Below are positions 1-21,143 of a stretch of DNA of 61,129 nt, one piece after another. Each line of letters begins with the position of its first letter. Within the stretch, counting starts at the first letter, position 1. Made by a program: the position numbers and the translations under genes. The stretch lies in IMG/VR virus record IMGVR_UViG_3300022752_004478, positions 1-61,129 of that record; one strand, written 5' to 3'. Source of the DNA: a virus (lineage: Duplodnaviria > Caudoviricetes). Below the pieces are notes generated by a model, which was given only the letters and a program-made list of their open reading frames with translations, had not been told where the DNA came from and made no database searches.

Positions 1-420
1 AAGACCATATGTAATTGAATTTAAAATATTTGAATTATGAACAACAATGTTATTTGCATAATATTCACCAAATCCTTCGACTTGAATATCTACTAGGTCT
101 TCTCTTTTAGACTTATCAAGTGCTATATATTTAATTTGTTCAATACCATCTTTGGTACGAATATTTATTTTTGATATGTTATTAATTATATTTTCAATTT
201 TAATGAACTGACCCAAATCATTTTTAATCAAATGGTCTTTTGAGCCACAAAGTCTTTTTCCTGAATTTGTCTCAATTGTCCAATATTCTGAATCTTTAGA
301 TGTTATGTCATAAGTTAATATTTTTGAATATCCACAAGGAGTTTCAACCTCAATATTTAATTCAGGTAAAAAATCTTTTAAAAATCTAAGATTTTCAATC
401 TTTATTTGTTTTTCTGTCAT
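1..420 (-). CDS. sbcC: Split-intein C-fragment (129 aa) fused to the continuation of SbcC/Rad50 (gp46-like) ATPase; runs off the left edge of the window
   Basis: Manual translation from ATG at 420: MTEKQIKIENLRFLKDFLPELNIEVETPCGYSKI...GKRLCGSKDHLI...EDLVDIQVEGFGEYYANNIVVHN|SNILNSITYGL. Open to base 1. The extein SNILNSITYGL completes the Rad50 Walker A left unfinished in ORF 5497-6834. Confidence 0.9.
   Translation of the reverse strand, partial: MTEKQIKIENLRFLKDFLPELNIEVETPCGYSKILTYDITSKDSEYWTIETNSGKRLCGSKDHLIKNDLGQFIKIENIINNISKINIRTKDGIEQIKYIALDKSKREDLVDIQVEGFGEYYANNIVVHNSNILNSITYGL
34..420 (-). other. C-terminal fragment of a naturally split class 1 intein (IntC, 129 aa, no endonuclease)
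   Basis: Block B-like SKDH, block F LVDIQV...YYAN, block G VVHN followed by Ser+1; no block A (Cys1) at its N-terminus. Confidence 0.9.
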
Positions 421-970
421 TTTCAAGAATTGGAAATATATCTGTTATTGTATTAATTTTAATAGGGTGATTTTCAAAATTATTATCAGGGTCAAATAAA
501 ATAATTTTAGTATTGGTAAAATTTAAATCTTTTAATTTGTGATTAGCTGTTAATATGTAATCAAAATTTTCATTTATATATTCTTCAAATTTATTATAAA
601 ACCTTATTTGGTCAAAATAAAAACCTGCTGAAAAATTTGATAAATAAAATGCTGTTAAGTTTCTAAATTTATAACCCTCTCTTGAGATAATAATAATCTT
701 ATATCCTTGTTCAGATAATTCGGGATATATTTGATTTAATTGTGCAATTAACTCTTTTGATGGAAGAGTTGATTTAGCAAACAATTCATAAGAATATTGA
801 AATAGAAAATCTTCCAATTCATTCTTTTCAAAATAAAAAGAAAGTAATGGATTGTATGGGTCAATTGGTTTTTTTATTTCCCTATCAGAATATTCAATCT
901 GATAATATATTTCAAATTTTTTTATAAAATCTCTTAAAATACCATTTATTTCTATAGCCAAGGTCTTCAT
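395..970 (-). CDS. HAD-fold 5'(3')-nucleotidase-like protein with altered motif I
   Basis: Likely start MKTLAIEINGILRDF at 970 (track start 1036 overlaps the divergent gene); resembles HAD motif I hhhDxDGhL but reads EING. Confidence 0.55.
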   Translation of the reverse strand: MKTLAIEINGILRDFIKKFEIYYQIEYSDREIKKPIDPYNPLLSFYFEKNELEDFLFQYSYELFAKSTLPSKELIAQLNQIYPELSEQGYKIIIISREGYKFRNLTAFYLSNFSAGFYFDQIRFYNKFEEYINENFDYILTANHKLKDLNFTNTKIILFDPDNNFENHPIKINTITDIFPILENDRKTNKD

Positions 971-1021
971 GAAATAAATATAGGATTTTTTGTCGTATTT
1001 TAATGAAAACGTAAAAAAATA

Positions 1022-2095
1022 ATGGATAGGATACAAAAACTAAATGAAATTCTAAATAACATTAGTAGTAATAACTATAATGTTTATCTGTATGTTCCTT
1101 CTATTCCTGATACTGTTTATTCAATGGCAGTAGAAGAAATATACAAAATTTGTTTCTTTTTAAGAAAAAACAATTATAATGCTTTTTTAATTACGGGTGA
1201 AGATGAAAAAGAACCTGAATTTAAAATACCTAATTTTCTTAGCGAAGAATTAAAATCATTACCGCATCTTTCACCTAGAAAAGATAATATTAGCGTATCT
1301 GTTAATGATGTATTGATTGTTCCTGAATTTTTTGTAAATGTAATGCATCAAATTTCTGATGCAAAAATTCAATGTGAAAAAATCGTTCTTTGTCAATCAC
1401 AAACATACATGCTTGATTCTTTACCACCAAATCATACTTGGGCAGCATGGGGTTTTAGTACAATTCTAACAACGTCTGAACAATTAAAAGAATTTATTCA
1501 AAGAAATAGTAGAGTAAATTATAATATTGAAAATTATAAAATTGGTATACCTAGTTATTTTAAGTCAAGTAAAATTAAAAAACCAATTATTATGTATTTT
1601 TCAAGAAATGATTCTGATATCAAAAGATTGTCAAAGATTTTCTTTATGAAATATCCCGAACTTTCTTGGGTATTATTTGAAAGAGTACAGGGTTCTGAAC
1701 CATTCATTACAAGAAAAGAACTTGCAGAAAAAATGAGTGAAATACCTGTTCTACTTTGGCTTGATAGAGATGCAGGTTTTGGAACATTGCCACTTGAAGC
1801 AATGAAAAGTGGTGCTGTAGTTGTTGGTATGATTCCTGAAATTGAAAAAGATTATCTTAAAATAGATGATACCGCAATTTGGTCAAGTTCAATTGAAGTT
1901 CTTGCTGAACAACTTGGTGTTGTTATTAAAGAATGGTTGATTGATAATATACCTTCAGTTGTATATGAAAATATGGAAAAAGTTTCTTCTGAATATACAG
2001 AAGAAAATCATGAAAAAACACTAATTCAAGCTTTTTCAAATATCATTGAAAATAGAAGAAATTTAATTAAACAAGCAATAGAAAATGGAAATTAA
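1022..2095 (+). CDS. GT-B fold (GT4-like) glycosyltransferase
   Basis: C-terminal GFGTLPLEAMKSGAVVVG motif; IVPE motif shared with paralog 19262-20218. Confidence 0.75.
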   Translation: MDRIQKLNEILNNISSNNYNVYLYVPSIPDTVYSMAVEEIYKICFFLRKNNYNAFLITGEDEKEPEFKIPNFLSEELKSLPHLSPRKDNISVSVNDVLIVPEFFVNVMHQISDAKIQCEKIVLCQSQTYMLDSLPPNHTWAAWGFSTILTTSEQLKEFIQRNSRVNYNIENYKIGIPSYFKSSKIKKPIIMYFSRNDSDIKRLSKIFFMKYPELSWVLFERVQGSEPFITRKELAEKMSEIPVLLWLDRDAGFGTLPLEAMKSGAVVVGMIPEIEKDYLKIDDTAIWSSSIEVLAEQLGVVIKEWLIDNIPSVVYENMEKVSSEYTEENHEKTLIQAFSNIIENRRNLIKQAIENGN

Positions 2096-2888
2096 TAAAT
2101 TAGATTTAACAGTAATCATTCCAATTCATAATTTGGAAAATGATTTAGACAAAGAATTGTTTCAACAATCAATTGAATCTTTGTTTAACCAAAATAATAA
2201 CATTACACCTAGTGAAGTTATTATTATAACAAATAAAGAAACTCAAAAAGAAATTAAAACAGATAGACCAATAAGATTTGTCATTAATAATGAAACATCT
2301 GATAATATTCAATCACAAATAAATATCGCAGTTGAAGAATCTAAAACAGATTTCTTTATGGTATTAGATTTTGATGATGAATTAACATCAATCTATTTTT
2401 CAAATGTATTGAATTATATGCAAGAAATGAAAAATGTTGATATGTTTCTTCCAATAATTGCAGATGTTACAATGGATAAAAAAATTCATAGATATATCAA
2501 TGAAATTAATTGGGCAAAAGATGTAACAAATGATAAACACGGTTATTTGACAATGGAAACATTGATGAATTATAATCTTGTTTCAATTAATGGTGCGGTT
2601 ATAAGAAAAGAAAAATTCCAAGAAGCTGGTGGATTGAAACCATCAATTAAACTTAGTTTTATTTATGAATTTTTAATGCGTTTTACAAATATTGATGGAA
2701 TTACATATACAATTCCTAAAATCGGATATTTGAGAAAATTCGGTAGAGAAAATTCTTATCTAAGTGAACAATCTAAAATGGATGGTGATGAGGTTACTTT
2801 TTGGTGGAATCTTGCTAAAAAAGAATATGTTTGGCCTCATGATAGGAACAAAACATATGTAAAGAAGCAAGAAACACCAGTAATTTGA
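2085..2888 (+). CDS. GT2-family glycosyltransferase
   Basis: LTVIIPIHN N-terminal strand and LDFDDE DxD motif. Confidence 0.8.
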   Translation: MEINKLDLTVIIPIHNLENDLDKELFQQSIESLFNQNNNITPSEVIIITNKETQKEIKTDRPIRFVINNETSDNIQSQINIAVEESKTDFFMVLDFDDELTSIYFSNVLNYMQEMKNVDMFLPIIADVTMDKKIHRYINEINWAKDVTNDKHGYLTMETLMNYNLVSINGAVIRKEKFQEAGGLKPSIKLSFIYEFLMRFTNIDGITYTIPKIGYLRKFGRENSYLSEQSKMDGDEVTFWWNLAKKEYVWPHDRNKTYVKKQETPVI

Positions 2889-2890
2889 TA

Positions 2891-3688
2891 ATGTCTGAGG
2901 AAATAAAAAAAAATAAAAGAGGCAGGAAGGCAAAACCCGGCTCTGTAAAAGAATATTTTACCGATGAAACAGAAAAAGCTATTGTTAGATATAATAGCCC
3001 CGACTGTTCATTGGATGAAAAAAATCAAATATACGATAAAGATATTCATAAAGCACTTAAAAAACTTGCTTATTTTACAGCAAAATCTTATTTTCTTTAT
3101 TTCTCAAAGCGTTACACAATAGAAGATATGGAAAATGACCTTCTGATTTTTGCCTTTAATAACCTTCATATGTTCAATCCCGAAAATATAAATAAAAAAG
3201 GTGTTAAATCAAAGGCATTTTCCTATTTCTCTACAATATGTAGAAACGAAGCAAAACATATATCAGAAAGAAATTTTAATCAAGATAAAACAAGTGATGA
3301 TGTTGTAGAAAATATAAATCTATTTGAAAGAGATATTTCATTATCATATATTATTAATGAAAATCTTGATGAAGATAATGATAATAATTATATAAAATTA
3401 GTTTTTTTAGGTATATGTAATGAAATAAAAAATAAAATAGAAAACGATAAAACACTAAAAGAAATAGATGTTAATGTGGGTTATTCATTAATTTCAATTA
3501 TTGAAAATTTTAATTATATTAATGAACCAACTGAATCAAAAATGAGCCTTTTCTTTATAAATAATAGAGTTATTGATATGATTTGTGAAATCACAAATAA
3601 TAAATATAAAAAACAAGAAATTAAAAAATCACTTAAATCTTTTAAATCACTCTATAAAAAATTAAAAGAAGATTACTTATCTATCTGA
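2891..3688 (+). CDS. T4 gp55-like (late transcription) sigma factor
   Basis: EYFT..TEKAIVRY N-terminus and KAFSYFSTICRN, resembling the gp55 region-2 F.YF..I motif. Confidence 0.6.
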   Translation: MSEEIKKNKRGRKAKPGSVKEYFTDETEKAIVRYNSPDCSLDEKNQIYDKDIHKALKKLAYFTAKSYFLYFSKRYTIEDMENDLLIFAFNNLHMFNPENINKKGVKSKAFSYFSTICRNEAKHISERNFNQDKTSDDVVENINLFERDISLSYIINENLDEDNDNNYIKLVFLGICNEIKNKIENDKTLKEIDVNVGYSLISIIENFNYINEPTESKMSLFFINNRVIDMICEITNNKYKKQEIKKSLKSFKSLYKKLKEDYLSI

Positions 3689-3831
3689 GGTTTTTGATTT
3701 GTATCACAACCACAATCTTTTTTGTAAGATGTATTACTTAACAAAAAAACAACAAAAGAAACTATTGAACTAATCCAATAATTTTCAAAGAAAAATTGTA
3801 ATACGAAAAAGCACAATAAAGCATGTAGCAT
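3673..3831 (-). CDS. Small membrane protein (52 aa) with CGC motif; not in ORF track
   Basis: Manual translation MLHALLCFFVLQFFFENYWISSIVSFVVFLLSNTSYKKDCGCDTNQKPQIDK*; fills the intergenic gap and has a promoter-like motif 13 nt upstream. Confidence 0.55.
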   Translation of the reverse strand: MLHALLCFFVLQFFFENYWISSIVSFVVFLLSNTSYKKDCGCDTNQKPQIDK

Positions 3832-3834
3832 AAC

Positions 3835-3851
3835 CTATTTATATTAAATAG
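3835..3851. promoter_or_regulatory. Bidirectional putative late promoter, CTATTTA-N3-TAAATAG
   Basis: Perfect 7-bp inverted repeat between divergent ATGs at 3831 and 3857; same geometry at 43868-43884. Confidence 0.6.
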
Positions 3852-3856
3852 AAAAA

Positions 3857-4159
3857 ATGGACGAATTTAATATGTATGAAGGTTTTATAGATGATGATAC
3901 ATTCGCAACATTACCATTCTTTAATATACCCGAAACAGAAAATGACGCATATGTAGAATGGACCGTTGGTGATAGATTAGATAAATTAGCTTATAGATTC
4001 TATGATAATCCAGCACTATCAAAATTTATATTGTTGGCCAATCCACAATACTTAGCAGAAAGCGATATAGAAATTGGTGACATAATTAGAGTGCCACTAA
4101 CTAAAGATGATATGTTTAGTTTTATTAGACAAAAAGTAGAAGAATCAAAACTATTCTAA
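3857..4159 (+). CDS. LysM-like / tail protein X / gp53-like baseplate protein
   Basis: GDRLDKLAYRFY...ILLANP...IEIGDIIRVP pattern. Confidence 0.75.
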   Translation: MDEFNMYEGFIDDDTFATLPFFNIPETENDAYVEWTVGDRLDKLAYRFYDNPALSKFILLANPQYLAESDIEIGDIIRVPLTKDDMFSFIRQKVEESKLF

Positions 4160-4399
4160 GATTCTAATACCATTGTATCTGTTCTTTATAAACTCAATAA
4201 ATGCCTTTCCTGTTGATTCTGAATCTTGTAGTTTAACATAATCTTCAAAACTAACATTGTCATATCTATATGTTAAGTTGCCCTTAACAAAAGTTATATG
4301 CAAAGTGTTATTGTTGGTATCATAAATTGATGATACGATGTTTGATGAATCATAGGTAGCATTAATGAATCCATCTTCTTGTGTTACATTTGTTGTCAT
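4151..4399 (-). CDS. KTSC domain protein
   Basis: SSNI..SIYD...TLHITF..G.TYRY.NV...Y..L..SESTGKAF...IKNRY matches the KTSC pattern. Confidence 0.85.
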   Translation of the reverse strand: MTTNVTQEDGFINATYDSSNIVSSIYDTNNNTLHITFVKGNLTYRYDNVSFEDYVKLQDSESTGKAFIEFIKNRYNGIRILE

Positions 4400-5496
4400 A
4401 GATTTAATAATTCTTCATGTAGTTCTGAAATATTGTTAAAAGTTTTATCTGTTTGAAGATTAAATATTTTTTTTAAATCTTCAATTAAGTTTTCGCTTGG
4501 TTTTTGAACTTCTAATAAAACATCTGTTCTACCTTTTCTTTTAATAGCATCATCAATTTTATCAAGTTCATTTGTAGTTATTATAAATATAACATCATTT
4601 GGTGTATATATCCCATCTAAAATATTTAAAATGCAAGAAAGTGAAATTTTTACATCAGAATCTTTCTTTTCTTCTTTTCTATTGATATCATCTAATAAAC
4701 AATCAATATCTTCAAATAGTACAATTGATTTCTTTGGTCTATCCGAAATTAAAGCAATTAGATTAGCATCTGTCATATCTTTTGATAGGTTAACAGCCAT
4801 TATATCTCTTTTGGTATAATTAGATATACCTAATGACAATGATGATTTTCCTGTTCCGGGAGGACCATAAAATAAATATGTTCTTTTGTATCGTATACCA
4901 TACTGTTCGTATTTTTCTTTTGATGAATTAAATCTATCTAAATCATTTTTAAGAAATTCAGATACATGATTATCAAGATAAATATTATCAAAAGTTTTAT
5001 TTATGACTTTACCTGCACATCTAATTTCTCCATTAAAGTTATAAAAATACTTTATATATTTATTACCATAATTATTATCAACATAATCCATCAATTCTTT
5101 TAGAATTGTCTTGTTCCTACAAAATATCATAAACATATGTTTATTATTCTTATATGGTGTCATACTATTTTGGATATTTTCAGCATTTTTCAATACTAAA
5201 AATCTATTTCCTTTAAATTTAAAGTAAATAAATCCTGAGTTATAAAACATATTAACATCAAAATTATCTGAACTTATAAAATTATCATATAATGTTCTAT
5301 AGTAAAGATTTTTAATAGAACTATTTTTTTCAGATAAGACAAAGTTTTGAAAAGAATAAAAGAAAAAAGAACTTTCTTCAATTTTCATTGAACAAATAAC
5401 TCTATCTCTTAATGTAGTTAATACAAAAAGAAAAAATTGTTTGAAGTAAACTAATGTACCTCCAAGAATGAGTGTTAATAATACTGTTTTATCCAT
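4396..5496 (-). CDS. BCS1-like AAA+ ATPase with N-terminal transmembrane segment
   Basis: YKRTYLFYGPPGTGKSS Walker A, IVLFEDID Walker B, ISLSCILNILDG, TTN, RKGRTD; hydrophobic N-terminus. Confidence 0.85.
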   Translation of the reverse strand: MDKTVLLTLILGGTLVYFKQFFLFVLTTLRDRVICSMKIEESSFFFYSFQNFVLSEKNSSIKNLYYRTLYDNFISSDNFDVNMFYNSGFIYFKFKGNRFLVLKNAENIQNSMTPYKNNKHMFMIFCRNKTILKELMDYVDNNYGNKYIKYFYNFNGEIRCAGKVINKTFDNIYLDNHVSEFLKNDLDRFNSSKEKYEQYGIRYKRTYLFYGPPGTGKSSLSLGISNYTKRDIMAVNLSKDMTDANLIALISDRPKKSIVLFEDIDCLLDDINRKEEKKDSDVKISLSCILNILDGIYTPNDVIFIITTNELDKIDDAIKRKGRTDVLLEVQKPSENLIEDLKKIFNLQTDKTFNNISELHEELLNL

Positions 5497-6834
5497 TTAT
5501 CTTAAAAATTCAGGTAAATAACCTAGTTTACTTATTATTTCTTCTTTATTATATCTAATATTAATCTTTGTTTCAGGATGAACACATTTACCAACCTGAT
5601 TTTCTCCATAGATTTGAATAATTCCATTCTTATCAGTTAAATCAAGTTCATATCTTTCTCCATGTGATTTAAAGTTATCTAGTACAATCTTTTTAACTTT
5701 CCAATCATAAAATTGATTCTCTACATCCTTTTCAATTAATGAACTAATTTCACTATCAAGTGCCAAAACATCCTTTATAAAATCTTCATTATGATTCTTT
5801 GATTTTAGAAAATTAATAAACTCTTGCCTTACACTATCATCATTATTTAAATCAATTGTTTCATCAAATTCTTTAATCTTTAAAGATTTATTAAGAATTT
5901 TTGATTTATCAAATTTGATAGTGGTGAATTCGCCATATTTAGATTCTAAGTGTTTCTTTATTTTTTGCTTGTTTTCAACATTAAATGTTGAATATTGGTC
6001 CATCCAATGAATTTTAAGATGGTTATATTTACCAATATTTGTAAGTTCAATATTTAGATTTTCATAATCATAATCTTCATGGATATATACATTAAAATAT
6101 TTATAATCAGAGATTATTTCTTTCTTTTCAAAAGTCTTTGCTTCAATATCCCATAAAAGATAACCATGAAAAGCATTATCACCTTCACCATAATTGGTAC
6201 AATATAATGATGATGGGTAAGCAAAAAATTCCTTTCCATTTTTTTGATATGATTGTTGGAGATGTATATCTCCTGCCATCACAATATCGCCTTTAAAATC
6301 AGCAAGAGAAACAATATTACTATCGGTATGTAATTGCCCATTTTGGAGATAGCATCCATTAATTGGGTCATGGAAAAGGTCAATATAAAACTTATTATTA
6401 TCACGCTCTTCTTCATTGAATTCAATCCAAGGTGATTTTCTGTCAGGGTGATACCAAACAGCAAAAGTAATGTTATCAAGTTCAAAAAGGCTTGTTGTGT
6501 CATAATAGTGTATATTAGGATTATTAATAATCTCAATAAGCATCTTAATAGATGACATTCTATTGAGATTTGATTTCATTATATCATGGTTACCATCAAT
6601 AATAACAATAGGTGCAATACTTGCACAAGATGTTAAAAAATCACCTGCAATGACATTAATTTCATTAAATGGTTTTACATAATTATGAAATAAATCACCT
6701 GCAATTACAATTAAATCAGGTTTGTCATTTAAAAGTGATTTAATCGTTTGAGAGGAAATATGTTTTTGCTCAGAAATCCTTTCCAAGTTATTTTGGAAGT
6801 GAATGTCGGCAAGATGGGCAACTTTGCGAATCAT
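5497..6834 (-). CDS. sbcD: SbcD/Mre11 (gp47-like) nuclease fused to the N-terminus of SbcC/Rad50 and a 29-aa split-intein N-fragment
   Basis: Phosphoesterase motifs ADIH, AGDLFH, GNHD, GDIH; then Rad50 start KIVLDNFKSH...IYGENQVGK followed directly by CVHPETKINI...stop. Confidence 0.9.
   Translation of the reverse strand: MIRKVAHLADIHFQNNLERISEQKHISSQTIKSLLNDKPDLIVIAGDLFHNYVKPFNEINVIAGDFLTSCASIAPIVIIDGNHDIMKSNLNRMSSIKMLIEIINNPNIHYYDTTSLFELDNITFAVWYHPDRKSPWIEFNEEERDNNKFYIDLFHDPINGCYLQNGQLHTDSNIVSLADFKGDIVMAGDIHLQQSYQKNGKEFFAYPSSLYCTNYGEGDNAFHGYLLWDIEAKTFEKKEIISDYKYFNVYIHEDYDYENLNIELTNIGKYNHLKIHWMDQYSTFNVENKQKIKKHLESKYGEFTTIKFDKSKILNKSLKIKEFDETIDLNNDDSVRQEFINFLKSKNHNEDFIKDVLALDSEISSLIEKDVENQFYDWKVKKIVLDNFKSHGERYELDLTDKNGIIQIYGENQVGKCVHPETKINIRYNKEEIISKLGYLPEFLR
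5500..5586 (-). other. N-terminal fragment of a naturally split intein (IntN, 29 aa)
   Basis: CVHPETKINIRYNKEEIISKLGYLPEFLR*: intein block A pattern (C-h-x-x-E/D-T-x-h) immediately after Walker A GK. Confidence 0.88.
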
Positions 6835-6838
6835 GTAT

Positions 6839-6848
6839 CAAATATACG
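6839..6848 (-). promoter_or_regulatory. Bacteroidota-type -7 promoter box (CGTATATTTG)
   Basis: Matches TAnnTTTG; 4 nt upstream of the ATG at 6834; identical 10-mer at 30910-30919. Confidence 0.55.
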
Positions 6849-6852
6849 GTTA

Positions 6853-7737
6853 TTAAATTAATTTTAATAAATTTTCTATCCGATTTTTATATGTATGATT
6901 TTCTTTCACAAAAAGTATTGACTCTCTTATTAATTTTGTATTTTTTTCTTTTTCCGAATTAATTAAGTCGTGGTACAATTCGGATGGATTTTCATTGAAA
7001 ACAACAAAATCCCCAAAAAACTTTTTAACATTTTCAGAATTTGTTCCTGTTAATCTTCCATAGCTAATATTTTTAAAAACCCTACATGGAATATAACCAC
7101 ATTCTCTATGCCAATCACCTCTTAAATCAACACTAACCAAGCTTTTCCTAATTAATTCTTTATTATCTTCGTCTGAAATATGATTAACATTTGTAAAATT
7201 CTTATTATTTTTTTCACATTCAGATTTAAACTTGTAAATTTCATTTATATTATCGTGTTGAGTACCAACATATATTACATTTTTTTCTGATTCATTAAAA
7301 AAATCGTTTTCATTTTCATAAATTTGATTTGGTGTTAAATCAGTACCCCAGGGTTGATAAACTGTTTTTGTTTTTTCATCCCAAAATGACCAATCATTAA
7401 TTCTTTCTACGCTATTTTCTTTATGATAAGCAGAAATACCATCATCACAATATTTTAAATAATTTGCTAAATTTATGAATGATAAATTATTCTCAATATA
7501 TTTATCTAATTTAGTATGATGTAAAATATATTTACAAGTTTTATTTAATGGGATATTATGTTGTGTTTGGTCTTCGGTAAGAAAAATTGAATTATCAAAA
7601 TTAAAATTTGATGTATCATCTTTTTCGTCTAACCAATAAGCATCAAATCCCATGTATTTTGCTGCTTTATAATATGATGAATGGATATAACTATGTGTAT
7701 GTCCGTTATACTTATGACCCCAAATTATTAATTTCAT
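6853..7737 (-). CDS. Putative GT-B glycosyltransferase (CgeB-like C-terminus)
   Basis: CRVFKNISYG and HTYKNRIENLL C-terminal motifs; glycan island context. Confidence 0.55.
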   Translation of the reverse strand: MKLIIWGHKYNGHTHSYIHSSYYKAAKYMGFDAYWLDEKDDTSNFNFDNSIFLTEDQTQHNIPLNKTCKYILHHTKLDKYIENNLSFINLANYLKYCDDGISAYHKENSVERINDWSFWDEKTKTVYQPWGTDLTPNQIYENENDFFNESEKNVIYVGTQHDNINEIYKFKSECEKNNKNFTNVNHISDEDNKELIRKSLVSVDLRGDWHRECGYIPCRVFKNISYGRLTGTNSENVKKFFGDFVVFNENPSELYHDLINSEKEKNTKLIRESILFVKENHTYKNRIENLLKLI

Positions 7738-8821
7738 TTTCTACTGTTTTTAATGCTTGTCCTATAACTTGATGCATATCATAATATTGATATGAACCTA
7801 ATCTACCACCAAATATAAATTTTTTTTGTAAAGAATTACTTTTTTCTTTATAATATTTATATTTTTTATTGTTTTTATCATCATTTATTGGATAATAAGG
7901 GATATCATTTTTTTGATAATTTTTAGGATATTCTTTTGTTATCCATGTAACATTTGATTTTGAGTTTTCAAAATGTTTGTGTTCTGTTATTCTTGTATAT
8001 GGTATATCATATTCTGTATAGTTTATAATAGAACTACCTTGATAATCATCAATATCTATTAATGAATTTTCAAATTTTAAACTACGATACTCTAATTCAC
8101 CAAATTCATAATTAAAAAATTCATCTATTTTGCCTGTAAAAACTATTTTTTTACTAATTGATTCAAAATATTCTCTATTTTTAAAAAAATCTGTATTTGT
8201 TCTAATTTCTATACCATCTAATAATTTATCAAATATTTGTGTATATCCTCCAATTGGTATTCCTTGATACTTATCAAAAAAATAGTTATCATCAAAATTT
8301 GTTCTAATTGGTAATCTTTTAATAATTGAAGTTGGTAGTTCTTTTGGGTCTTTATTCCATTGTTTTTTTGTATATCCTTTTATAAAAATATTGTATATAT
8401 CTTCACCAACTTGTGATAATATCCATTCTTCTAAATTATTTGGATTGTCATTTTTTATTTTTACTGAATTAATTTTTTCTATAGCTTCTAAAGGTGTTCT
8501 AACACCCCAAATTTGTTGAAGTGTCATTAAATTAATTGGGAATGAATAAATATTATTTTTATAAAAAACTTTTGGTGAATGTTTATAATTGTGAAAATCA
8601 GTAAATTGATTTATCCAATTCCATATTTTTTTATCATTAGTATGAAAAATATGTGGACCATATTTATGTATATTTATATTATCTTTATTTTCAGTATAAC
8701 AATTTCCTCCAATATGATTTCTATTTTCAATAATTAAACATTTCTTACCTATTTTATTCATTTCATAGGCAAAAACTGAACCAAAAATACCGCTACCAAC
8801 TATAAGATAATCATAAATCAT
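7712..8821 (-). CDS. glf: UDP-galactopyranose mutase
   Basis: YDYLIVGSGIFG FAD motif, HIGGNCY, HKYGPHIFHT, YTKKQW, YFFDKYQGIP, GRLGSYQYYDMHQ. Confidence 0.97.
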   Translation of the reverse strand: MIYDYLIVGSGIFGSVFAYEMNKIGKKCLIIENRNHIGGNCYTENKDNINIHKYGPHIFHTNDKKIWNWINQFTDFHNYKHSPKVFYKNNIYSFPINLMTLQQIWGVRTPLEAIEKINSVKIKNDNPNNLEEWILSQVGEDIYNIFIKGYTKKQWNKDPKELPTSIIKRLPIRTNFDDNYFFDKYQGIPIGGYTQIFDKLLDGIEIRTNTDFFKNREYFESISKKIVFTGKIDEFFNYEFGELEYRSLKFENSLIDIDDYQGSSIINYTEYDIPYTRITEHKHFENSKSNVTWITKEYPKNYQKNDIPYYPINDDKNNKKYKYYKEKSNSLQKKFIFGGRLGSYQYYDMHQVIGQALKTVENEINNLGS

Positions 8822-10167
8822 AAAATAAAATTTTTAAGGTCTTCTGGTGTTCCCAAGCCATACATTTTTTCCGCATTAAAATTTTTTATTTTTTTACCAT
8901 CTTTAATTGCTTCATTAAAAACAGGACAAACATAAAATTCATTATTTACTCTAATATTTTTTTCAATCATTTGTTCTGCATATTTTACAAAATCAGAACC
9001 ATTTTTCCAATAATAAAAACCAACAGTAGCAATATTTGAAATAGGATTTTTTTCGGCAACTTCAATTACATTATTGTTTTCATTTAACCTTACAAATGAC
9101 CATTTTGGATGTGTTGATTCAAAAGTAACAATACCACCATCTGCATCTGATTCATTCATTTTATACATAAATTCTGTAGAATCCCATTCAACATATTGGT
9201 CTGAATTGGCAAAAAATAAAGGTGAGTCATTATTAATGTATTCTTTTGCTAATAATGCTGTACAGGCAGCACCTTGAGTAATACCATCTGTTTCAACAAT
9301 TTTACAATTTGGTGAAATTAAATTTAATAAAGAATCTAAATTATATTTTTGTCTATGTTCTTTTTGAACAACAAAAATAAAATTAGCATCAACATTTAAA
9401 TTTTCAACAACAACTTGAATCATTGGTTTATTGTTTATATCTATTAATGGTTTTGGAAAAGTATAACCAGCCTCTTTAAATCTACTTCCAGAACCTGCCA
9501 TAGGTATTAAAACATTTAATTTTTTATCAGTCCATTTTGGTTTCATATATTTACTTACAGATTCAATTTCTTTAATTTTTTCGTTAATGTTTTTATAAAA
9601 TACGTCATTGGGTGACTTAACTCTTAAAATGTGTGAATTGCTTCTGTTCGCTGCTAATAAACCATATGGGGAATCTTCAATTATTAATGTTTCTTCTGGC
9701 AAAACATTAATTTTAGAAATAGCGGTCCAATAAATTTCGGGATGTGGTTTACTATTATTTACATCTTCATTAGATAAAATTAAATCAAAGTATTCTATAA
9801 TACCTAATCTACTAAGAACAGTAAGAATTGTTTTCCTTATGCTATTTGAACATACTGCTAATTTATATCCTGATTTTGATAATAAATCCATACAAACTAT
9901 AAGTTGATATGATTTATCTAAATTTTTTAATGCTTCAAGAGTATATTTTTGTTTTTCTTCCCAAATATTTTTAAAATATTCCTTTGGAAGACCTTTTTTT
10001 TCATGTAATATTTCTAATTTTTGATTGGTTTTTAGACCATCATAAATTGATAAATGTTCATCCCAGTCAATAGCATATTCTTTTAATGCTTTATTAAATG
10101 CTTCAAAATGTATATTTTTAGCTTCTACTAAAACACCATCTAAATCAAAAATAATTAATTTAATCAT
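8818..10167 (-). CDS. HAD phosphatase fused to sugar-nucleotidyltransferase domain
   Basis: N-half FDLDGVL, KPHPEIY, IEDS; C-half LIPMAGSGSRF...PKPLI, EVAEK, EFYVCPVFN, GLGTPEDL. Confidence 0.9.
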   Translation of the reverse strand: MIKLIIFDLDGVLVEAKNIHFEAFNKALKEYAIDWDEHLSIYDGLKTNQKLEILHEKKGLPKEYFKNIWEEKQKYTLEALKNLDKSYQLIVCMDLLSKSGYKLAVCSNSIRKTILTVLSRLGIIEYFDLILSNEDVNNSKPHPEIYWTAISKINVLPEETLIIEDSPYGLLAANRSNSHILRVKSPNDVFYKNINEKIKEIESVSKYMKPKWTDKKLNVLIPMAGSGSRFKEAGYTFPKPLIDINNKPMIQVVVENLNVDANFIFVVQKEHRQKYNLDSLLNLISPNCKIVETDGITQGAACTALLAKEYINNDSPLFFANSDQYVEWDSTEFMYKMNESDADGGIVTFESTHPKWSFVRLNENNNVIEVAEKNPISNIATVGFYYWKNGSDFVKYAEQMIEKNIRVNNEFYVCPVFNEAIKDGKKIKNFNAEKMYGLGTPEDLKNFIL

Positions 10168-10185
10168 ACAAAATATAGTATAATA

Positions 10186-10977
10186 TTAAATTAATATTTT
10201 TTCATTGTTAAATATATTAGAATATGTTTTACTATCATCTAATATTGGATTTTCTCCAATTCTATACCCTTCTGAATACCATTTTTCTGTTTCTGGTCTA
10301 TTTGCTACTTTATATAAAGGGTTTCTGTCTTTATAAGTATCTGAATCATGATAAGTATCTAGAAAAAATGTAACATTTTCATACAAGTAATCAGACATTA
10401 TATCACATGCTTCATGTGGTGTTAATATTATTTCACCATTATATAATTCATTAAAAAATTTCTTAGGTATAAATAACATTAAGTCATTAATTCTGTGTCT
10501 ATTTTTTGCCCAAGTTTTATGGTGTGGTACTTCTAAAGGATTTAAAAATGATGTTATCCAACAAATAGATGGATATATTATCTTATCATAATTTGAATTA
10601 AATACTTCTAAAAATTTTTCTTTTAAAATTAAATCAATTCTTAAAAAGAAAATAAAATCAATATCATTTTCTTTTTGTGTTAAAAACAATGCCTGATTAA
10701 ATAAATTATCATATCCTATTGGATTATCAATAATAATTGACTCAACATCATATGATTTAAACCATTCTAATAAATTATCATTATACTGTGTATTATATGT
10801 TATTAATTTGATTTTAATATCAATATTATCTCTTATTTTAGAAAAAAAAGCTAATTGTGACTTTGTGGCTAATTCTTGTTCATGGAAAGATTCGGGTATA
10901 CCACGAACTCTACTTCCTTGTAAACCATATCTAAAAGATTCACCAATAATACAAAAAACACCTTTTTGTTTTTTCAT
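10186..10977 (-). CDS. Hypothetical protein in glycan island (possible GT-A fold)
   Basis: 263-aa ORF, FFLRIDL motif, co-oriented with glycosyltransferases. Confidence 0.5.
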   Translation of the reverse strand: MKKQKGVFCIIGESFRYGLQGSRVRGIPESFHEQELATKSQLAFFSKIRDNIDIKIKLITYNTQYNDNLLEWFKSYDVESIIIDNPIGYDNLFNQALFLTQKENDIDFIFFLRIDLILKEKFLEVFNSNYDKIIYPSICWITSFLNPLEVPHHKTWAKNRHRINDLMLFIPKKFFNELYNGEIILTPHEACDIMSDYLYENVTFFLDTYHDSDTYKDRNPLYKVANRPETEKWYSEGYRIGENPILDDSKTYSNIFNNEKILI

Positions 10978-10979
10978 GA

Positions 10980-11921
10980 TTAATTTAAATCTCTAAAAAT
11001 TATTTTTTTAATTTGTTCTAATTTATGATTTGCATATATTGGATTATAAAAATTTTGATATCCAGTACCTGATTTAAAATGAATAATTGGTGATTTAGTT
11101 ATATCAGTATCAATTGATTGTATAATATCAATATGTATTGGATTTAAAAAATCATAATTATCTATAAATAATTCTTTTAGTTTAAAGAAGTTATTAATAT
11201 AATATTCTTCATAATTTTCTATATCATTTTCATATGGAAATGATTTTTTGTCTGAAAATCTATCACCCCCTAAAAGATGTAATTTTTTATTATTCATATC
11301 AAAACTATATCTAATATTACCATTTAAATGGGTGTCAAAATTATTATTTATAATATCATATATATTCCAAAATTCAAAAAATCCAATATCGTTTTTATCT
11401 ATTTTTTTTAATAATTCAGATGTTTGACCACCCATATCGCTAATGCCTTCAACTGGATTCCAAATAAATAATTTTGTTAAATTATTTGAATTAAAAAATT
11501 CACTATCGAATAATAAAACTCCATCCCACATATAATAAAGAGAATTATTTAGTCTATATTGTGGATTTATTATAATTTTTTTATTATCCATTAGACTTTT
11601 ATAATCTAATTTGTTTATAAAAAACATATCTGAATGAATTAATAAAATATAATCAGATATATTCTTTTGCATTGTGTCTCTAAACCAATTTAACTGTTCT
11701 ACATAATATGTTATAAACCCATTATTTGGCCCAATATATTTAATACATTCAATATTGTTATTTTTGCAAATGTTATCAATTTCATCCGCATTATTAGTTG
11801 ATGCATTAACAACAATTAATTCTGTGTCAGCATCTTGCATGTAAAGTTTGTATGAATCAATTTGTAATTGAAGATACTCAGGGTTTCTATCAGGAAATGT
11901 AAATATTTTTAACTTTTTCAT
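10980..11921 (-). CDS. Putative GT-A fold glycosyltransferase
   Basis: LLIHSDMFF (DxD-like), DMGGQT, IIHFKSG. Confidence 0.5.
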   Translation of the reverse strand: MKKLKIFTFPDRNPEYLQLQIDSYKLYMQDADTELIVVNASTNNADEIDNICKNNNIECIKYIGPNNGFITYYVEQLNWFRDTMQKNISDYILLIHSDMFFINKLDYKSLMDNKKIIINPQYRLNNSLYYMWDGVLLFDSEFFNSNNLTKLFIWNPVEGISDMGGQTSELLKKIDKNDIGFFEFWNIYDIINNNFDTHLNGNIRYSFDMNNKKLHLLGGDRFSDKKSFPYENDIENYEEYYINNFFKLKELFIDNYDFLNPIHIDIIQSIDTDITKSPIIHFKSGTGYQNFYNPIYANHKLEQIKKIIFRDLN

Positions 11922-11922
11922 T

Positions 11923-12654
11923 TTAATTATTTTCTAATAGACTTTTTAATACTAATAACGCACTACCATCATATATAACTTCTTGACCATTCGGCCATAA
12001 AATTTTTTCTGTTTTTCCACCACATACTACAATATGATTAGGTAAATGTTTTTCAACAAAAGAACCCCATGTGTCATTTAAAAACTTCAATTCATCTGTA
12101 TAATCAATACCATATTCTTTATTTGTGTGAAATTCAATTTCAATATATGGGATATTTTTTAATAGTGTTGAGTTTTCAATAAAATTGTATTCAGCACCTT
12201 CAATATCTATTTTAATAAATTCTACTTCACCTTCAAAAAAGTTTTTATATTCATTAATTATATCTTCTAAAGTAATTGTTTTAATTAAAGTAACATTTTC
12301 TGTTGATTGATATGACCAACCACCTACATTTCCTCTTACTTTACCTAATTGAATAAAGTCTTTATTATAAAATAAGGCTTTATTAATTACTTGTCTTTTT
12401 TTATCATCTTTAATTCTTTCTGTGATGTAATTATAATTTTCTACCATAGCCTCAACAAGTACGGCTTTTTTTAATGAAGGAATATTTTCAAAAAATATAT
12501 CCGAAACACCTCCAGTACAAGAACCAATATCTATAAAGTTCTTTATTTCTGCTTTTTTTAAAAAGTCAATAACTTTTTTATAATACCCTGAATTATTCCA
12601 CTCATTTATTGTATAACTTAGGTGTTGATTTAAACTATCTGTAATGCCAAACAT
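11923..12654 (-). CDS. FkbM-family methyltransferase
   Basis: FIDIGSCTG and FIKIDIEGAE motifs. Confidence 0.85.
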   Translation of the reverse strand: MFGITDSLNQHLSYTINEWNNSGYYKKVIDFLKKAEIKNFIDIGSCTGGVSDIFFENIPSLKKAVLVEAMVENYNYITERIKDDKKRQVINKALFYNKDFIQLGKVRGNVGGWSYQSTENVTLIKTITLEDIINEYKNFFEGEVEFIKIDIEGAEYNFIENSTLLKNIPYIEIEFHTNKEYGIDYTDELKFLNDTWGSFVEKHLPNHIVVCGGKTEKILWPNGQEVIYDGSALLVLKSLLENN

Positions 12655-12657
12655 TTT

Positions 12658-13527
12658 TTATTTTTTTATTAAATATATGTACTTTTTTTCTATTAATTGT
12701 AAAAATTCTATAGAATAGTCATTTTCTAGTTTAATTTCTTGAAAATTACCACTTCTAAAGAATAAGTCACTTTTATTATTTATATGATTTGTTATATTAT
12801 TTTTAATATGTTCATTATTAAATTCTTGATGTGCATATGCGTCAATTTTTTCTTTTATTCTATTTTCACCACCCATAAAAGATAAATGCCATCCACCATT
12901 ATTTACAACTTTATTTGTTAATTTATTTTGTCTAATAAAATTTAAAGAATTATTTTTTAATGTATACCAATTTGTTAGTTTAGGACCACTCCAATTTTCT
13001 TCTTTTAATAAATTTATGTAATAATAAAACATTTTTTGTCTAAAATCTATTACACCATTATTAAAATTTTCAGTATTTATTTTTAATTCGTTTGGGTTTG
13101 GAAATTCATCAATATCTGAAATAACTATTAAATCATCATCAGAACAATCAATCAAACCCATTATAATTGATTCTCTTTGAAAAATTTCCCTACCCCATTG
13201 TTTTTCATTTCTAGACCATCCTGAAGATTCTTGCACATATTTTAATATATTATTTAAATAAAAATCTTTATTGTTGGTTGGATTATGAATAAATGGTAAA
13301 TTATAAAAATCATTTGGTGTATTATCTATAATTACATGTATAATCTTGTCTTCAAAATCTTTGAATAAAGATTTATTTTCTTCAAAAAAAAGTTTTTTAG
13401 GTTTCCCTGAAAAAGTTATTGTTGATTCAACTATAACAAATTTATCAACAATATTATTTAATAAATTTAAACGTAAATCTAATAAGTCTAATTCATTAAA
13501 AAATAAAAAACAATCGTAAACTTTCAT
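12658..13527 (-). CDS. GT17-family (beta-1,4-GlcNAc transferase-like) glycosyltransferase
   Basis: YDCFLFFNELDLLDLRL, FVIVES..TFSGKPK, SDIDE, GGWHLSF. Confidence 0.88.
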   Translation of the reverse strand: MKVYDCFLFFNELDLLDLRLNLLNNIVDKFVIVESTITFSGKPKKLFFEENKSLFKDFEDKIIHVIIDNTPNDFYNLPFIHNPTNNKDFYLNNILKYVQESSGWSRNEKQWGREIFQRESIIMGLIDCSDDDLIVISDIDEFPNPNELKINTENFNNGVIDFRQKMFYYYINLLKEENWSGPKLTNWYTLKNNSLNFIRQNKLTNKVVNNGGWHLSFMGGENRIKEKIDAYAHQEFNNEHIKNNITNHINNKSDLFFRSGNFQEIKLENDYSIEFLQLIEKKYIYLIKK

Positions 13528-13528
13528 A

Positions 13529-14170
13529 TTAATATTTTTTTATAAAAATAATACTTCTATATAAGTGAATATAATCAATATTAGATTCCCACCAATTTAA
13601 TTCACCTCTTATTTTGTTTTGATAGAAATTATCAGATTCTAAATTATCAATTTCAGCTAATCCACATTTTCCATTTGAATTAGTAAAATCTAAGAGTTGT
13701 TTAATTCTATCCATAAATTCAGTATCGTTTGGACTAAAATCATCCCAATAACAACAATGTAAATCTTCAACAACATAAATTCCACCGTTATTTAATAATG
13801 GGAATAAAAAATCAAAACTTTTTTTCATATCTCTACTTATGTGAGAACCATCATCTATAATTATATCAAAAGGACCATGTTCTTTATTTATTTTATCTAA
13901 AAGATTTAAATCTTTTTGGTCACAAATAAAAGTTTTAATCCTTTCACTATCAAATCTAGAACAGTCAACAATATCAATTCCATAAATTTTTGATTTATTA
14001 AAAAATTCTTCCCAAGTCTTTAAGGAAAAACCATTTTGTATTCCAATCTCTAATATTTTTAATTTCTTATGTCTTATTTTTTCAAAATAAGAATTGTATT
14101 TTTCGGAATAGTTATGTAAATTACTACCCTTATCAGTACCGTATTTTAAACAAATGTCATTTAATGTCAT
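13529..14170 (-). CDS. Class I SAM-dependent sugar O-methyltransferase (MycE/TylE-like)
   Basis: GTDK...HNY, ILEIGI, DIIIDDGSH, GGIYVVEDL. Confidence 0.85.
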   Translation of the reverse strand: MTLNDICLKYGTDKGSNLHNYSEKYNSYFEKIRHKKLKILEIGIQNGFSLKTWEEFFNKSKIYGIDIVDCSRFDSERIKTFICDQKDLNLLDKINKEHGPFDIIIDDGSHISRDMKKSFDFLFPLLNNGGIYVVEDLHCCYWDDFSPNDTEFMDRIKQLLDFTNSNGKCGLAEIDNLESDNFYQNKIRGELNWWESNIDYIHLYRSIIFIKKY

Positions 14171-14171
14171 A

Positions 14172-15104
14172 TTAGTATATATTTAAGTTATTTTCATATT
14201 TTAATTTTAATTGTAAACATTCATCAAATGTGTATAGTTTACCATTTCTGTTTAAATATTGCCAATTTGGTATCAAAGAGTCACCACATGACCAATATCC
14301 ATCACTATTTTTGTAATCAGCCCAATACATTGGTGCAATAACATTTACATTATCATTTAACCAAATAGGCCAAAATGAAAAACTAGATGCTGATATTATT
14401 GCATTTTTAGCATTTAATAGTATTGTCCAATCCATCCAAATAGGGCCACCAATATGATGATTTGCCTTAAACTTATCTTGTTGGCCTGTTTTTGAAGCAC
14501 CAATTATTTCAATTTCAGGGAAAAGTGATTTTGAAAAATTATAGTCATCTGTAACAATGTAAAAAATCATATTTGGATTGATTAAAGACATTTCTTTAAT
14601 GGCATTATCATAATAGTCTTTATATAAAATTGATGTACTTGCGTGAAAATCACCACCTCTAATATGTATAATGCATATATTCTGGTCCGAAAAATCTAAT
14701 ATATTTTTTTCGCTTTTAATTTTTATCCAATTTTTAATTATATTTTTATATTTAAATATATAATTAATTGATTGCATATTACCATCAATCTTAGTATTAT
14801 CTTTAATATTCAAAAGATTGTCATCTAATTTAGATATATCTAAACCATTACTATGTCTAATTATTAATTCTTTATAATAATTTTGAATTGTATTTGGTAA
14901 TGTATTTGGTGGTCCACCTTCAGGTCCATCACCACCAATTACTTCGTTTCCAAAGTCTATTTCCAAAAATTCTTGACCTTTAAATTTATAGTTTGATTGT
15001 ATGCCAAATTCATATTTATTTTCATATGCAATGCACCTAGTTACAAAGTAGCACCAAAGTTGATTACCTAAACCCTGACCATTATAAAATTCAGTAACTA
15101 TCAT
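14172..15104 (-). CDS. GT11-family (alpha-1,2-fucosyltransferase-like) glycosyltransferase
   Basis: GQGLGNQL, IHIRGGD, VTDD, SSFSFW motifs. Confidence 0.85.
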   Translation of the reverse strand: MIVTEFYNGQGLGNQLWCYFVTRCIAYENKYEFGIQSNYKFKGQEFLEIDFGNEVIGGDGPEGGPPNTLPNTIQNYYKELIIRHSNGLDISKLDDNLLNIKDNTKIDGNMQSINYIFKYKNIIKNWIKIKSEKNILDFSDQNICIIHIRGGDFHASTSILYKDYYDNAIKEMSLINPNMIFYIVTDDYNFSKSLFPEIEIIGASKTGQQDKFKANHHIGGPIWMDWTILLNAKNAIISASSFSFWPIWLNDNVNVIAPMYWADYKNSDGYWSCGDSLIPNWQYLNRNGKLYTFDECLQLKLKYENNLNIY

Positions 15105-15106
15105 AG

Positions 15107-15727
15107 TTATAGGTTTTTGTTTCTCAATAAAACGTCACTTCCAAAATCATGAACAACTTCCCAATCGTTTCCTAATAAAGATAAAATCTTATCTAAATTG
15201 GGTTGATTTTCATAAAATTCTCTATTTGCATACTCAGTATACAAAAACTTAACTTTATTTTTAAAAGTTTCCTTACCACCAATAATCATCAAATCTTCAG
15301 CACCTTGAACATCTGCCCAAATAAAATCTATAATATTAATATTATTTTTTTCACAAAAAGTATCTAATTTTATTGTTTTTACTTTGATTTGTTCATCAAA
15401 ATAAATCCAATTCCATTCATTTAAATGTTCTTTAGGTGGTTTTATACTACCTGAATATCTCAAATCATTAGGATTATCTGTTCTAGACCTATTAAAGGTA
15501 ATTTCACCATCTAAATCAGAAATAACCCCCTCAAAAAGATTAAAATTATTATAATTAATTTTTTCTTTAATTAATTTAATATTTGAAGGGTCTGGTTCAA
15601 ATGAAAATAAATTTAAATATTCAAATGTATTGATAAAATCTAATGTATCTTGACCATCTGCTGCACCAATTTCAAAAATTGTTGGATTTTCTTTATTGAT
15701 TAAATTTTTTATTTGATTTTTATTCAT
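15107..15727 (-). CDS. FkbM-family methyltransferase
   Basis: FEIGAADG, FEPDP, KLDTF, DFIWADVQGAE. Confidence 0.88.
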   Translation of the reverse strand: MNKNQIKNLINKENPTIFEIGAADGQDTLDFINTFEYLNLFSFEPDPSNIKLIKEKINYNNFNLFEGVISDLDGEITFNRSRTDNPNDLRYSGSIKPPKEHLNEWNWIYFDEQIKVKTIKLDTFCEKNNINIIDFIWADVQGAEDLMIIGGKETFKNKVKFLYTEYANREFYENQPNLDKILSLLGNDWEVVHDFGSDVLLRNKNL

Positions 15728-15730
15728 GAA

Positions 15731-16387
15731 TTATAATTTAGTATAAAATACGTTATTTTTACCATGAAATCCAAAAGGAATTATATTTTCTATTTCAGGA
15801 ATATATGCCTCATGAGAAAAATATTTTGCAACTTCTAGAGGTGCAAATTTACAATCGTTATCTTCGTAAAGATGTCTATACATTGCACAAATAAATCCAT
15901 CTTCATTGTAAAAACCATGAAATGGTCTCCATTTTAATCCGATTTTATTAGCAAGTTTTATTAATTTTCTACTCCTTAGTGAAAAACCACCATTTCCAAC
16001 TCTAAATATATTGCCAAAAGCATCTCTATATGAAAAATTATCTCTTGGTAATTGAAATGGTGCGCCAATATAATCATAATCTAAAAATTCATCTCTCCAA
16101 GATTCAGGATTTATTACATATCCATCTGTTTGTATAGTTAATGCAAACTCAGTATCAATATAATTTTCTAACTTATAAATCATAGAGTAACTATATTCGT
16201 CAATATTATTAATTTTATCAATATGACAATACTCTATTTTAGTTGGTAAATAACTAGGTTTTTCATGAGTTATCAATTTGATTGATGCAAATTCAATTTT
16301 TTCTGAACTTAATTCTAAAACCTTAATGCATTTATCAATATCAACAGATGACATTAATACTAATGTAACATTATCTAATTTTAACAT
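15731..16387 (-). CDS. DUF5672-like glycan-associated protein
   Basis: QTDGYVINP..W...FLDYDYIGAP, VGNGGFSLRS, PFGFHG. Confidence 0.8.
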   Translation of the reverse strand: MLKLDNVTLVLMSSVDIDKCIKVLELSSEKIEFASIKLITHEKPSYLPTKIEYCHIDKINNIDEYSYSMIYKLENYIDTEFALTIQTDGYVINPESWRDEFLDYDYIGAPFQLPRDNFSYRDAFGNIFRVGNGGFSLRSRKLIKLANKIGLKWRPFHGFYNEDGFICAMYRHLYEDNDCKFAPLEVAKYFSHEAYIPEIENIIPFGFHGKNNVFYTKL

Positions 16388-19260: not shown

Positions 19261-19261
19261 A

Positions 19262-20218: not shown

Positions 20219-20219
20219 T

Positions 20220-20417
20220 TTAAAAGGGGATTTCTAAACCAAATGTTTCAATAATTTTGTAGTCAGAGTTAAAATTATCAATTAAATATGTTTTTTTAGG
20301 TTTATGTTTTAAATCCAAAAATTCAATATAATAAGTTTCTTTTGTTTTTTCCAAAAGTTTTATTTTTCTAGGTTGACCAGAAGATTCTTTCACGATATAT
20401 ACATTTCCTATTTCCAT
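20220..20417 (-). CDS. Hypothetical protein
   Basis: 65-aa ORF abutting the next gene, co-oriented. Confidence 0.6.
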   Translation of the reverse strand: MEIGNVYIVKESSGQPRKIKLLEKTKETYYIEFLDLKHKPKKTYLIDNFNSDYKIIETFGLEIPF

Positions 20418-20437
20418 AATATAAATATATTATATTT

Positions 20438-21115: not shown

Positions 21116-21128
21116 ATGTATTTTAGTA

Positions 21129-21135
21129 TAAATAG
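21129..21135 (-). promoter_or_regulatory. Putative phage promoter motif CTATTTA
   Basis: Coding-strand CTATTTA in a short intergenic gap, 13 nt upstream of ATG 21115. Confidence 0.5.
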
Positions 21136-21143
21136 TTTACAAC

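Follow-up and report, generated by a model that had tools for sequence, protein, structure and literature searches.

A conserved split intein with a short N-piece at the Rad50 P-loop that most likely trans-splices a phage Mre11-Rad50 fusion protein

Natural split inteins whose N-terminal piece (IntN) is short enough for chemical synthesis are few, and the named examples are AceL TerL, GOS TerL, VidaL and PolB16 (PMC13014065), whose IntNs are 25, 37, 16 and 15 residues long, respectively (PMC11766414, PMC13014065, PMC10189870). More natural candidates are wanted, since artificially shortened inteins are described as tending to splice poorly (PMC13014065). The fold is reported to be broken right after strand beta2 in VidaL and PolB16 and after the first helix in the AceL and GOS inteins of the terminase large subunit, TerL (PMC13014065). 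Here we describe a locus of this general kind in the DNA of IMG/VR record IMGVR_UViG_3300022752_004478 (the whole 61,129-base stretch is called the window below), which comes from a large, AT-rich tailed phage from lake water. Two separate genes of this phage carry a 29-residue IntN at the end of an Mre11-like protein with the first strands of Rad50 and a 129-residue C-terminal intein piece (IntC) at the start of what appears to be the rest of Rad50. From the comparisons presented below we hold, with considerable confidence, that this is a genuine, conserved and selected split intein, and that it most likely trans-splices a phage Mre11-Rad50 fusion protein.

An earlier interpretation, made from the letters of the window without database searches (the sequence-only reading), had described both open reading frames (ORFs), and their ends were confirmed to the base (Table 1). 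It had also called the product of the first, or N, gene an SbcCD-type protein, and this proved right: residues 4–191 match Pfam PF00149 Metallophos (calcineurin-like phosphoesterase; E 1e-11, 46 bits against a cut-off of 21.5), fused to a Rad50 N-terminus, and the whole protein matches phrog_35725, a long “metallo-phosphoesterases” profile, over profile positions 6–481 of 1376. Its Rad50 strands align with WNIDKF...GENQQGK of an intein-free homologue (below). The N-extein ends with the first half of the Walker A motif (GENQVGK), and the end of the gene reads ...IIQIYGENQVGK (extein), then CVHPETKINIRYNKEEIISKLGYLPEFLR (the IntN), then TAA. The Cys1 codon, for a class 1 splicing nucleophile, lies at 5584–5586 immediately after GENQVGK and is conserved in all eight N genes compared; in seven sequences 21 of the 29 IntN positions are invariant, as are 11 of the 16 positions of its tail.

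Table 1. Positions of the principal features in the window
Feature	Positions	Strand	Description
Window	1..61129		61129 bases, linear, whole IMG/VR record; CheckV completeness estimate 19%
C-extein start	1..33	minus	SNILNSITYGL; Ser+1 codon 31-33; gene runs off contig end
IntC	34..420	minus	129 aa, ATG at 420; first helix, block B, block F, block G
Spacer between halves	421..5496	both	5076 nt, 7 unrelated genes
N gene ORF	5497-6834	minus	445 aa
IntN stop	5497..5499	minus	TAA in 8/8 N genes
IntN	5500..5586	minus	29 aa; Cys1 + block A hairpin CVHPETKINIRYN + 16-residue tail KEEIISKLGYLPEFLR
N-extein	5587..6834	minus	416 aa; Mre11/SbcD metallophosphoesterase, then first Rad50 strands
Rad50 N-terminal strands to P-loop Lys	5587..5709	minus	41 aa, YDWKVKK...GENQVGK
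PhoH-like ATPase gene	58887-60707	plus	contiguous 356-aa intein at about 59097-60164

The second, or C, gene begins with the IntC, whose C-terminus reads ...ANNIVVHN (His-Asn codons 34–39) and is followed directly by Ser, so that 31–39 encode a terminal His-Asn and a +1 residue of the Ser/Thr/Cys kind. Its block B reads SKDH, with the histidine of the TxxH motif encoded at 232–234, and a comparison of 16 sequences showed no variation at H63, D111, V114, N123, H128 or N129. Across the relatives Cys1, His-Asn and Ser+1, which the sequence-only reading had named as class 1 splicing residues, never change, and neither does the block-B His. The 140-residue C-piece alone matches the gp41-1 intein (PDB 6qaz; E 8.5e-5), and a profile built from 16 members of the IntC family matches 33 PDB sequences at E<=0.01 with inteins leading (gp41-1, 1.2e-16; VidaL, 7.9e-14; NrdJ-1, 7e-13; CatC, 1.1e-9).

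The insertion site was located by comparison with an uninterrupted protein. The closest deposited phage genome, LR756501.1 (uncultured phage, 735 kb), has a 1202-residue ORF with Metallophos and AAA_23 domains that is a single-chain counterpart of both exteins; Tenacibaculum phage PTm1 has a similar fused protein of 1318 residues. Residues 1–418 of the window N protein align with 1–415 of the LR756501.1 ORF, and residues 130–854 of a relative's C protein align with 414–1201, residue 130 being the Ser that follows His-Asn. The exteins therefore abut at residues 413/414, the predicted intein junction, and the Walker A motif is intact when they are joined, as had been proposed. By this alignment the intein interrupts the Rad50 Walker A loop after its Lys and ahead of its Ser. 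Because the P-loop of LR756501.1 reads GENQQGK/TT at the junction (slash), Ser+1 would be the splicing nucleophile and the Walker A Ser/Thr at once, and the P-loop would be complete only once the exteins have been ligated.

Since the C gene runs off the window, the body of its product had to be sought in related IMG/VR contigs (loci designated L), nine of which encode the N protein (88–92% identity) and four the C piece (69–72% identity). In L015 the C gene has 856 codons for the intein C-piece and a 727-residue body that carries CPSC, SGSGMER, ILLLDE and IEH, which we take to be the hook, the signature, Walker B and the IEH motif, respectively. Against the fused homologue with the AAA_23 domain, the relative's C-part scores E 2e-70. 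The sequence-only reading had allowed that the frame to the left of base 1 might stop early or not be Rad50-like, and in the relatives neither is the case. When the N gene of the window is combined with L015, the pair has the features of a Rad50/SbcC protein fused to Mre11/SbcD.

The two halves are laid out in the same way in other contigs. L015 has an N gene of 445 codons, then seven other genes, then the C gene, and in the window and five relatives both halves lie on one strand with a spacer of 3999–5754 nucleotides (nt) whose genes are syntenic. The IntN has 29 residues (32 in L004) across eight N genes and the IntC 129 residues in all six C genes, each of which (6/6) has its own Met and an in-frame stop upstream of the IntC ORF. 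The encoding of the halves by separate genes is reproducible, as expected of a naturally split intein. The seven spacer genes comprise three on the minus strand, each beside one of the two halves, and a block of four on the plus strand at 1022–4159; their Pfam and PHROG matches are an AAA ATPase, KTSC, a baseplate-wedge-like protein and GT2. From the gene orientations, with this plus-strand block between them, the halves are most likely in separate transcription units. Promoter-like sites in 1–7000 (58 against 60.4 expected) were uninformative on this point, and of terminator-like sites there (5 against 0.7 expected) none lies at an interpretable gene end.

The spacer itself varies somewhat. 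The BCS1-like AAA ATPase gene (4396–5496, minus strand), which directly follows the IntN stop, is present in some strains and absent from others (it is missing in L010), and the spacer of L006 has an extra ORF for an FkbM-type methyltransferase. In addition, a 35-nt stretch at 447–481, close upstream of the IntC start, has a second copy (89% identity, E 4e-7) at 41598–41632 on the other strand of the contig.

A single metagenomic contig raises the question of whether the halves were separated by an assembly error, a point for checking in the sequence-only reading, and some large phages recode stop codons, so that the IntN stop might be read through under another genetic code. Near-identical DNA is present in the sequencing runs of several studies, and contigs from independent runs bridge base 420, where the IntC starts (X2, 1–1651 and extending past the left end of the window; X3, 183–758; X4, 123–472). 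One X2 contig joins 4400 to 5496, with three other letters between, and continues through 5496–6171 across the IntN stop; because of this join, it represents a strain without the AAA ATPase gene that has the IntN end. Misassembly is excluded, because six related contigs from other samples share the split layout, with both halves in the same order, and the independent-run contigs bridge the gene ends at 420 and 5496. As to recoding, the stop is TAA in all eight N genes and the next gene starts at once, four opposite-strand genes lie between the halves, and stop codon usage in window ORFs of at least 150 residues is standard (TAA 40, TGA 10, TAG 1). We consider an origin of the split in assembly or recoding to be hardly credible at all.

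That the two pieces might instead be the broken, decaying remains of an intein-bearing Mre11-Rad50 gene, yielding no functional enzyme, is suggested by the 5 kb of other genes that interrupt it and by the incompleteness of the contigs, which leaves room for a functional copy elsewhere. The substitution pattern argues strongly the other way. Median ratios of nonsynonymous to synonymous substitution (dN/dS, by the Nei-Gojobori method over sequence pairs) are 0.139 for IntN (28 pairs) and 0.204 for IntC (15 pairs); the N-extein has 0.083, with 0.024 in its last 40 codons, and the C-extein 0.146. All four segments fall between 0.02 and 0.20, and both intein halves are under purifying selection. 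No frameshift or internal stop is present in the eight N genes or the six C genes, the layout and lengths are kept across samples, and the architecture recurs in 86 distinct Rad50 intein cores (below). Decay is a highly improbable explanation of such a locus.

If this class 1 intein is functional, as we think, the first gene product (Mre11, the Rad50 N-strands and the 29-residue IntN) and the second, encoded 5.1 kb away (the 129-residue IntC and the rest of Rad50), would meet by docking of the short IntN into the nearly complete Hint fold of the IntC. Cys1 would then form the thioester, Ser+1 would attack it and the terminal Asn would cyclise, and the exteins would be ligated into a protein of ~1143 residues with its P-loop intact. 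It might be argued that the intein pieces only tether the two polypeptides, or cleave without ligating, and that the enzyme is a non-covalent two-chain complex. A phage NrdA split by a mobile element has been reported to assemble via interaction domains derived from that element (PMC3045599). Against tethering, every residue on which the chemistry depends, beyond mere binding, is invariant (Cys1, the block-B His, His-Asn, Ser+1) though the IntCs are only 57–72% identical, a Hint domain of ~158 residues left at the Walker A GK/S would probably occupy the nucleotide-binding loop, and relatives with a contiguous intein at this site can function only if it splices out. We therefore regard tethering or cleavage without ligation as improbable, and trans-splicing as the better account.

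Several observations nevertheless weigh against trans-splicing of an Mre11-Rad50 protein by this intein. The block-B Thr position is Ser in the window IntC (SKDH), and Pfam Intein_splicing matches that IntC weakly (E 0.0095, 16 bits, cut-off 35.8). The C-extein in the window is only 11 residues long, the Rad50 body is seen only in relatives whose IntC is 69–72% identical, and Walker A is the only Rad50 motif visible in the window itself. The sole Pfam match of the relative's Rad50 body is SbcC_Walker_B at E 9e-5 and 23.1 bits, which is under the cut-off of 27. The IntC evolves faster than its hosts, with a median amino-acid identity of 67% compared with 86–92% for the exteins and, in the window and L006 and L008–L011, a median dS of 1.16 compared with 0.54–0.58; the high IntC dS could be accounted for, among other ways, by intein alleles passing from one lineage to another. 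Finally, all of the contigs are fragments (16–65% complete) and a second, intact Rad50 gene could lie elsewhere in these genomes; each of four related contigs of 52–170 kb has exactly one Rad50-like locus.

The position of the break differs from the type to which the sequence-only reading had assigned this intein. The head of the IntC (…KQIKIENLRFLKDF…) aligns with the VidaL segment EKKVTVQELRELY, from chain residue 23 of 145 and profile position 2. CatC, the C-piece of a consensus intein of the TerL type, aligns only from profile position 17 and lacks the element that the IntC head carries. Minimal contiguous relatives (P0005, P0043 and P0069; P designates proteins from the database scan described below) have one such element, which is like the IntC head, and in the contiguous P0009, P0023 and P0027 the hairpin and the IntC-head element are separated by inserted residues (…K[LF]GFLPxELK) that are homologous to the tail of the IntN. 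We conclude from these alignments that the IntN consists of a 13-residue block-A hairpin and a conserved 16-residue tail, and that the break is S1-like (as in VidaL and PolB16), before the first helix, in the variable loop that follows the tail. The lengths of the pieces (29 and 129 residues) and a break ahead of the first helix agree with a short-IntN intein of the S1-like kind; the point at which the CatC alignment starts and the Rad50 host do not agree with the S2 kind (AceL-TerL/GOS-TerL type). Conservation of the tail suggests that it has a function, and we propose that it may be an extra docking element. The likeness between the IntN tail (…YLPEFL) and the IntC head (…FLPEL) was considered as a sign of duplication and rejected, as it is found only in the window clade and is absent in L008 and the wider family.

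VidaL (PDB 6vgv/6vgw) therefore resembles this intein in its point of fission: it too is naturally split with a short N-piece, and in both inteins the C-piece starts near the same place in the fold, so that the first helix belongs to it. Its IntN has 16 residues compared with 29 here, the extra 13–16 residues being the conserved tail. In single-sequence PDB searches aimed at the origin of VidaL, a DnaB-type IntC gave no matches and a standalone-Rad50 IntC gave three intein matches, none of them VidaL. If the VidaL host were a Rad50-type gene, the present family would already have a characterised member. The AceL-TerL, GOS-TerL and Cat-TerL inteins are likewise natural, have short IntNs, come from phage-like metagenomic DNA and reside in a P-loop ATPase (PMC11766414, PMC13014065), but as described there their host is the terminase large subunit and they are split after the first helix, whereas here the host is Rad50 and the break precedes the helix. 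The best match among solved structures, gp41-1, is also of phage origin, and its blocks B, F and G align; the IntC aligns with its residues 29–128 of 128, which is most of the fold. In contrast to the proportions found here, gp41-1 is canonically split, with the break at the endonuclease position, a long IntN and a short IntC (PMC11923092, in a general description).

How widespread is this kind of intein? A HMMER scan of 1.84 billion representatives with the 129-residue IntC found 94 proteins at E<=1e-3, 18 of them at <=1e-10. Classified by sequence pattern, 68 have the IntC at residues 1 to ~130 (P0033 is a false match among these, and P0089 was missed), 14 are contiguous inteins, six are internal with an unrecognised N junction and six have no junction by pattern. 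Most of the 68 proteins are 630–860 residues long, and the +1 residue is Ser in 61 and Thr in seven of them. The 14 contiguous inteins include fused Mre11-Rad50 proteins (P0009, P0027), in which IntN-like and IntC-like sequences at the same site are joined by a short linker, and standalone Rad50 proteins with the P-loop near residue 40.

IMG/VR was also scanned by pattern, on the basis of the family alignment, and 75 loci were obtained, with hosts assigned by blastp of the C-exteins: 28 split and four contiguous inteins in Rad50, 18 split and one contiguous in DnaB-like helicases, and 18 split (TerL-type loci recovered by the same scan), three contiguous and one unclear in the terminase large subunit, with no unclear cases for Rad50 or DnaB; eight further junction rows lack an assignable host protein. 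Of the split Rad50 loci, 25 of 28 have a matching same-strand upstream IntN gene (one of the 25, L019, is the window-clade contig of L011). Gaps between the halves in the other Rad50 loci range from ~0 nt (L028) to ~1.5 kb, and the window clade has the widest, 4.0–5.8 kb. The N-exteins are ~408 residues (Mre11-fused), ~165 residues (a domain without an assigned family) or 40–50 residues (standalone Rad50) in length, and the IntNs have 26–39 residues, some of them including the first helix and so being S2-like. The two sets together contain 104 distinct Rad50 intein cores, of which 86 are split and 18 contiguous. Atypically split inteins at the Rad50 site are therefore common in viral metagenomes, and the window intein is one of many.

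Individual members of the Rad50 family show variations of their own. In L028 (4982–5063) the IntC ORF starts directly after the IntN stop; L032 (6331–6507) and L042 (6301–6471) have Ser1 and IntNs of 56–58 residues; and the IntNs of L040, L045, L048, L051 and L054 have 35–39 residues with the first helix included (…TTIGELY…). In P0005, P0023, L030, L036 and L038 a domain of ~165–174 residues, to which no family was assigned, precedes the Rad50 N-terminus in place of Mre11.

DnaB-like helicases of other viral contigs (L043, L047, L050, L052, L053, L057, L058, L060–L064, L066, L067, L070, L077, L080 and L081) have an IntC of 136–150 residues at the N-terminus, followed by SW…; judged by these assignments, the DnaB-like helicase joins Rad50 and terminase as a host of atypically split inteins. 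In contrast to these, the DnaB-like gene of the window itself (21512–22969) has no intein. A tree of 154 intein cores (106 columns) is poorly resolved, with 15 of 151 inner branches starred. It clusters by host gene (six changes over three host labels), and in a nine-group host-by-state test it has 36 changes compared with a shuffled mean of 65.2. The contiguous Rad50 inteins are interspersed with the split ones (17 changes over 18 rows; shuffled mean, 17.3). Since the well-supported branches force only three changes, many independent splits are not established, and the resolution is too low for splitting events to be counted.

Searches of deposited phage genomes with tblastn gave, for the relative's IntC-Rad50C protein, four records, none aligning over the intein part; for P0012, four records, all terminase genes; and for P0046, 153 records, of which the best 30 comprise 26 annotated as terminase and four hypothetical or without annotation. 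These tblastn searches (for P0046, the best 30 of 153 records) brought to light no cultured phage that carries the Rad50 split intein. A published description of a split Rad50 intein was likewise not found in a literature search of mostly open texts, without supplementary tables or InBase. Viral Mre11-Rad50 fusion proteins and Rad50-like ATPases with Hint domains and endonucleases have been reported (bioRxiv 10.64898/2026.07.21.739742); those cases are contiguous with homing endonucleases, and the terms “split” and “trans-splic” are absent from the main text of that preprint. Fractured genes of the AceL NrdHF type likewise divide a phage gene into two genes with one intein half each, but are described with a homing endonuclease gene between the halves (PMC7891396); here seven unrelated genes, four of them on the opposite strand, occupy that place, and no homing endonuclease family was matched by the seven spacer ORFs or the extra L006 ORF in Pfam or PHROG. 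We regard the Rad50 split intein as one more example of atypical splitting, a class already known, in a host site that we did not find described; its tail and its wide gene separation are unusual.

Membership in a large family lowers the surprise of the window intein and raises its practical value. The family adds a host site with natural variants (IntNs of 26–58 residues, Cys1 or Ser1, Ser+1 or Thr+1, and contiguous counterparts) among which ligation tools that are fast, orthogonal or active in the cold might be sought. The P-loop GK/S or GK/T appears as a shared landing place for inteins in Rad50, terminase and DnaB-like helicases, and a nuclease-ATPase for end processing that is conserved across large phages can be divided between two genes far apart, its whole form presumably being restored after translation. 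A bolder picture would combine three ideas: that the Rad50 P-loop hosts a large radiation of independently split inteins, that in the window clade the IntN tail is a high-affinity docking handle, and that the opposed transcription units form a post-translational AND gate that times the nuclease-ATPase during infection. Taken jointly these are speculative, and we think it rather unlikely that all three are correct.

The remaining content of the window is in keeping with its source. Its G+C content is 25.5%, and, as expected of a tailed phage, some of its proteins have PHROG matches to baseplate wedge subunits, to a DnaB-like helicase and to an exonuclease. A second intein, contiguous and with a LAGLIDADG domain (PF14528, E 2e-12), is present in the PhoH-like ATPase gene (Table 1). 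It is also inserted at a P-loop, GVAGCGK/AQPL… …VTHN/TFIAL, in the same GK/S or GK/T position as the Rad50 intein. Its first residue is Ala, not Cys or Ser, and its Trp (KEHLW), Cys (AVCISI) and Thr (VTHN) stand at what we take to be the positions of the WCT triplet of class 3 inteins.

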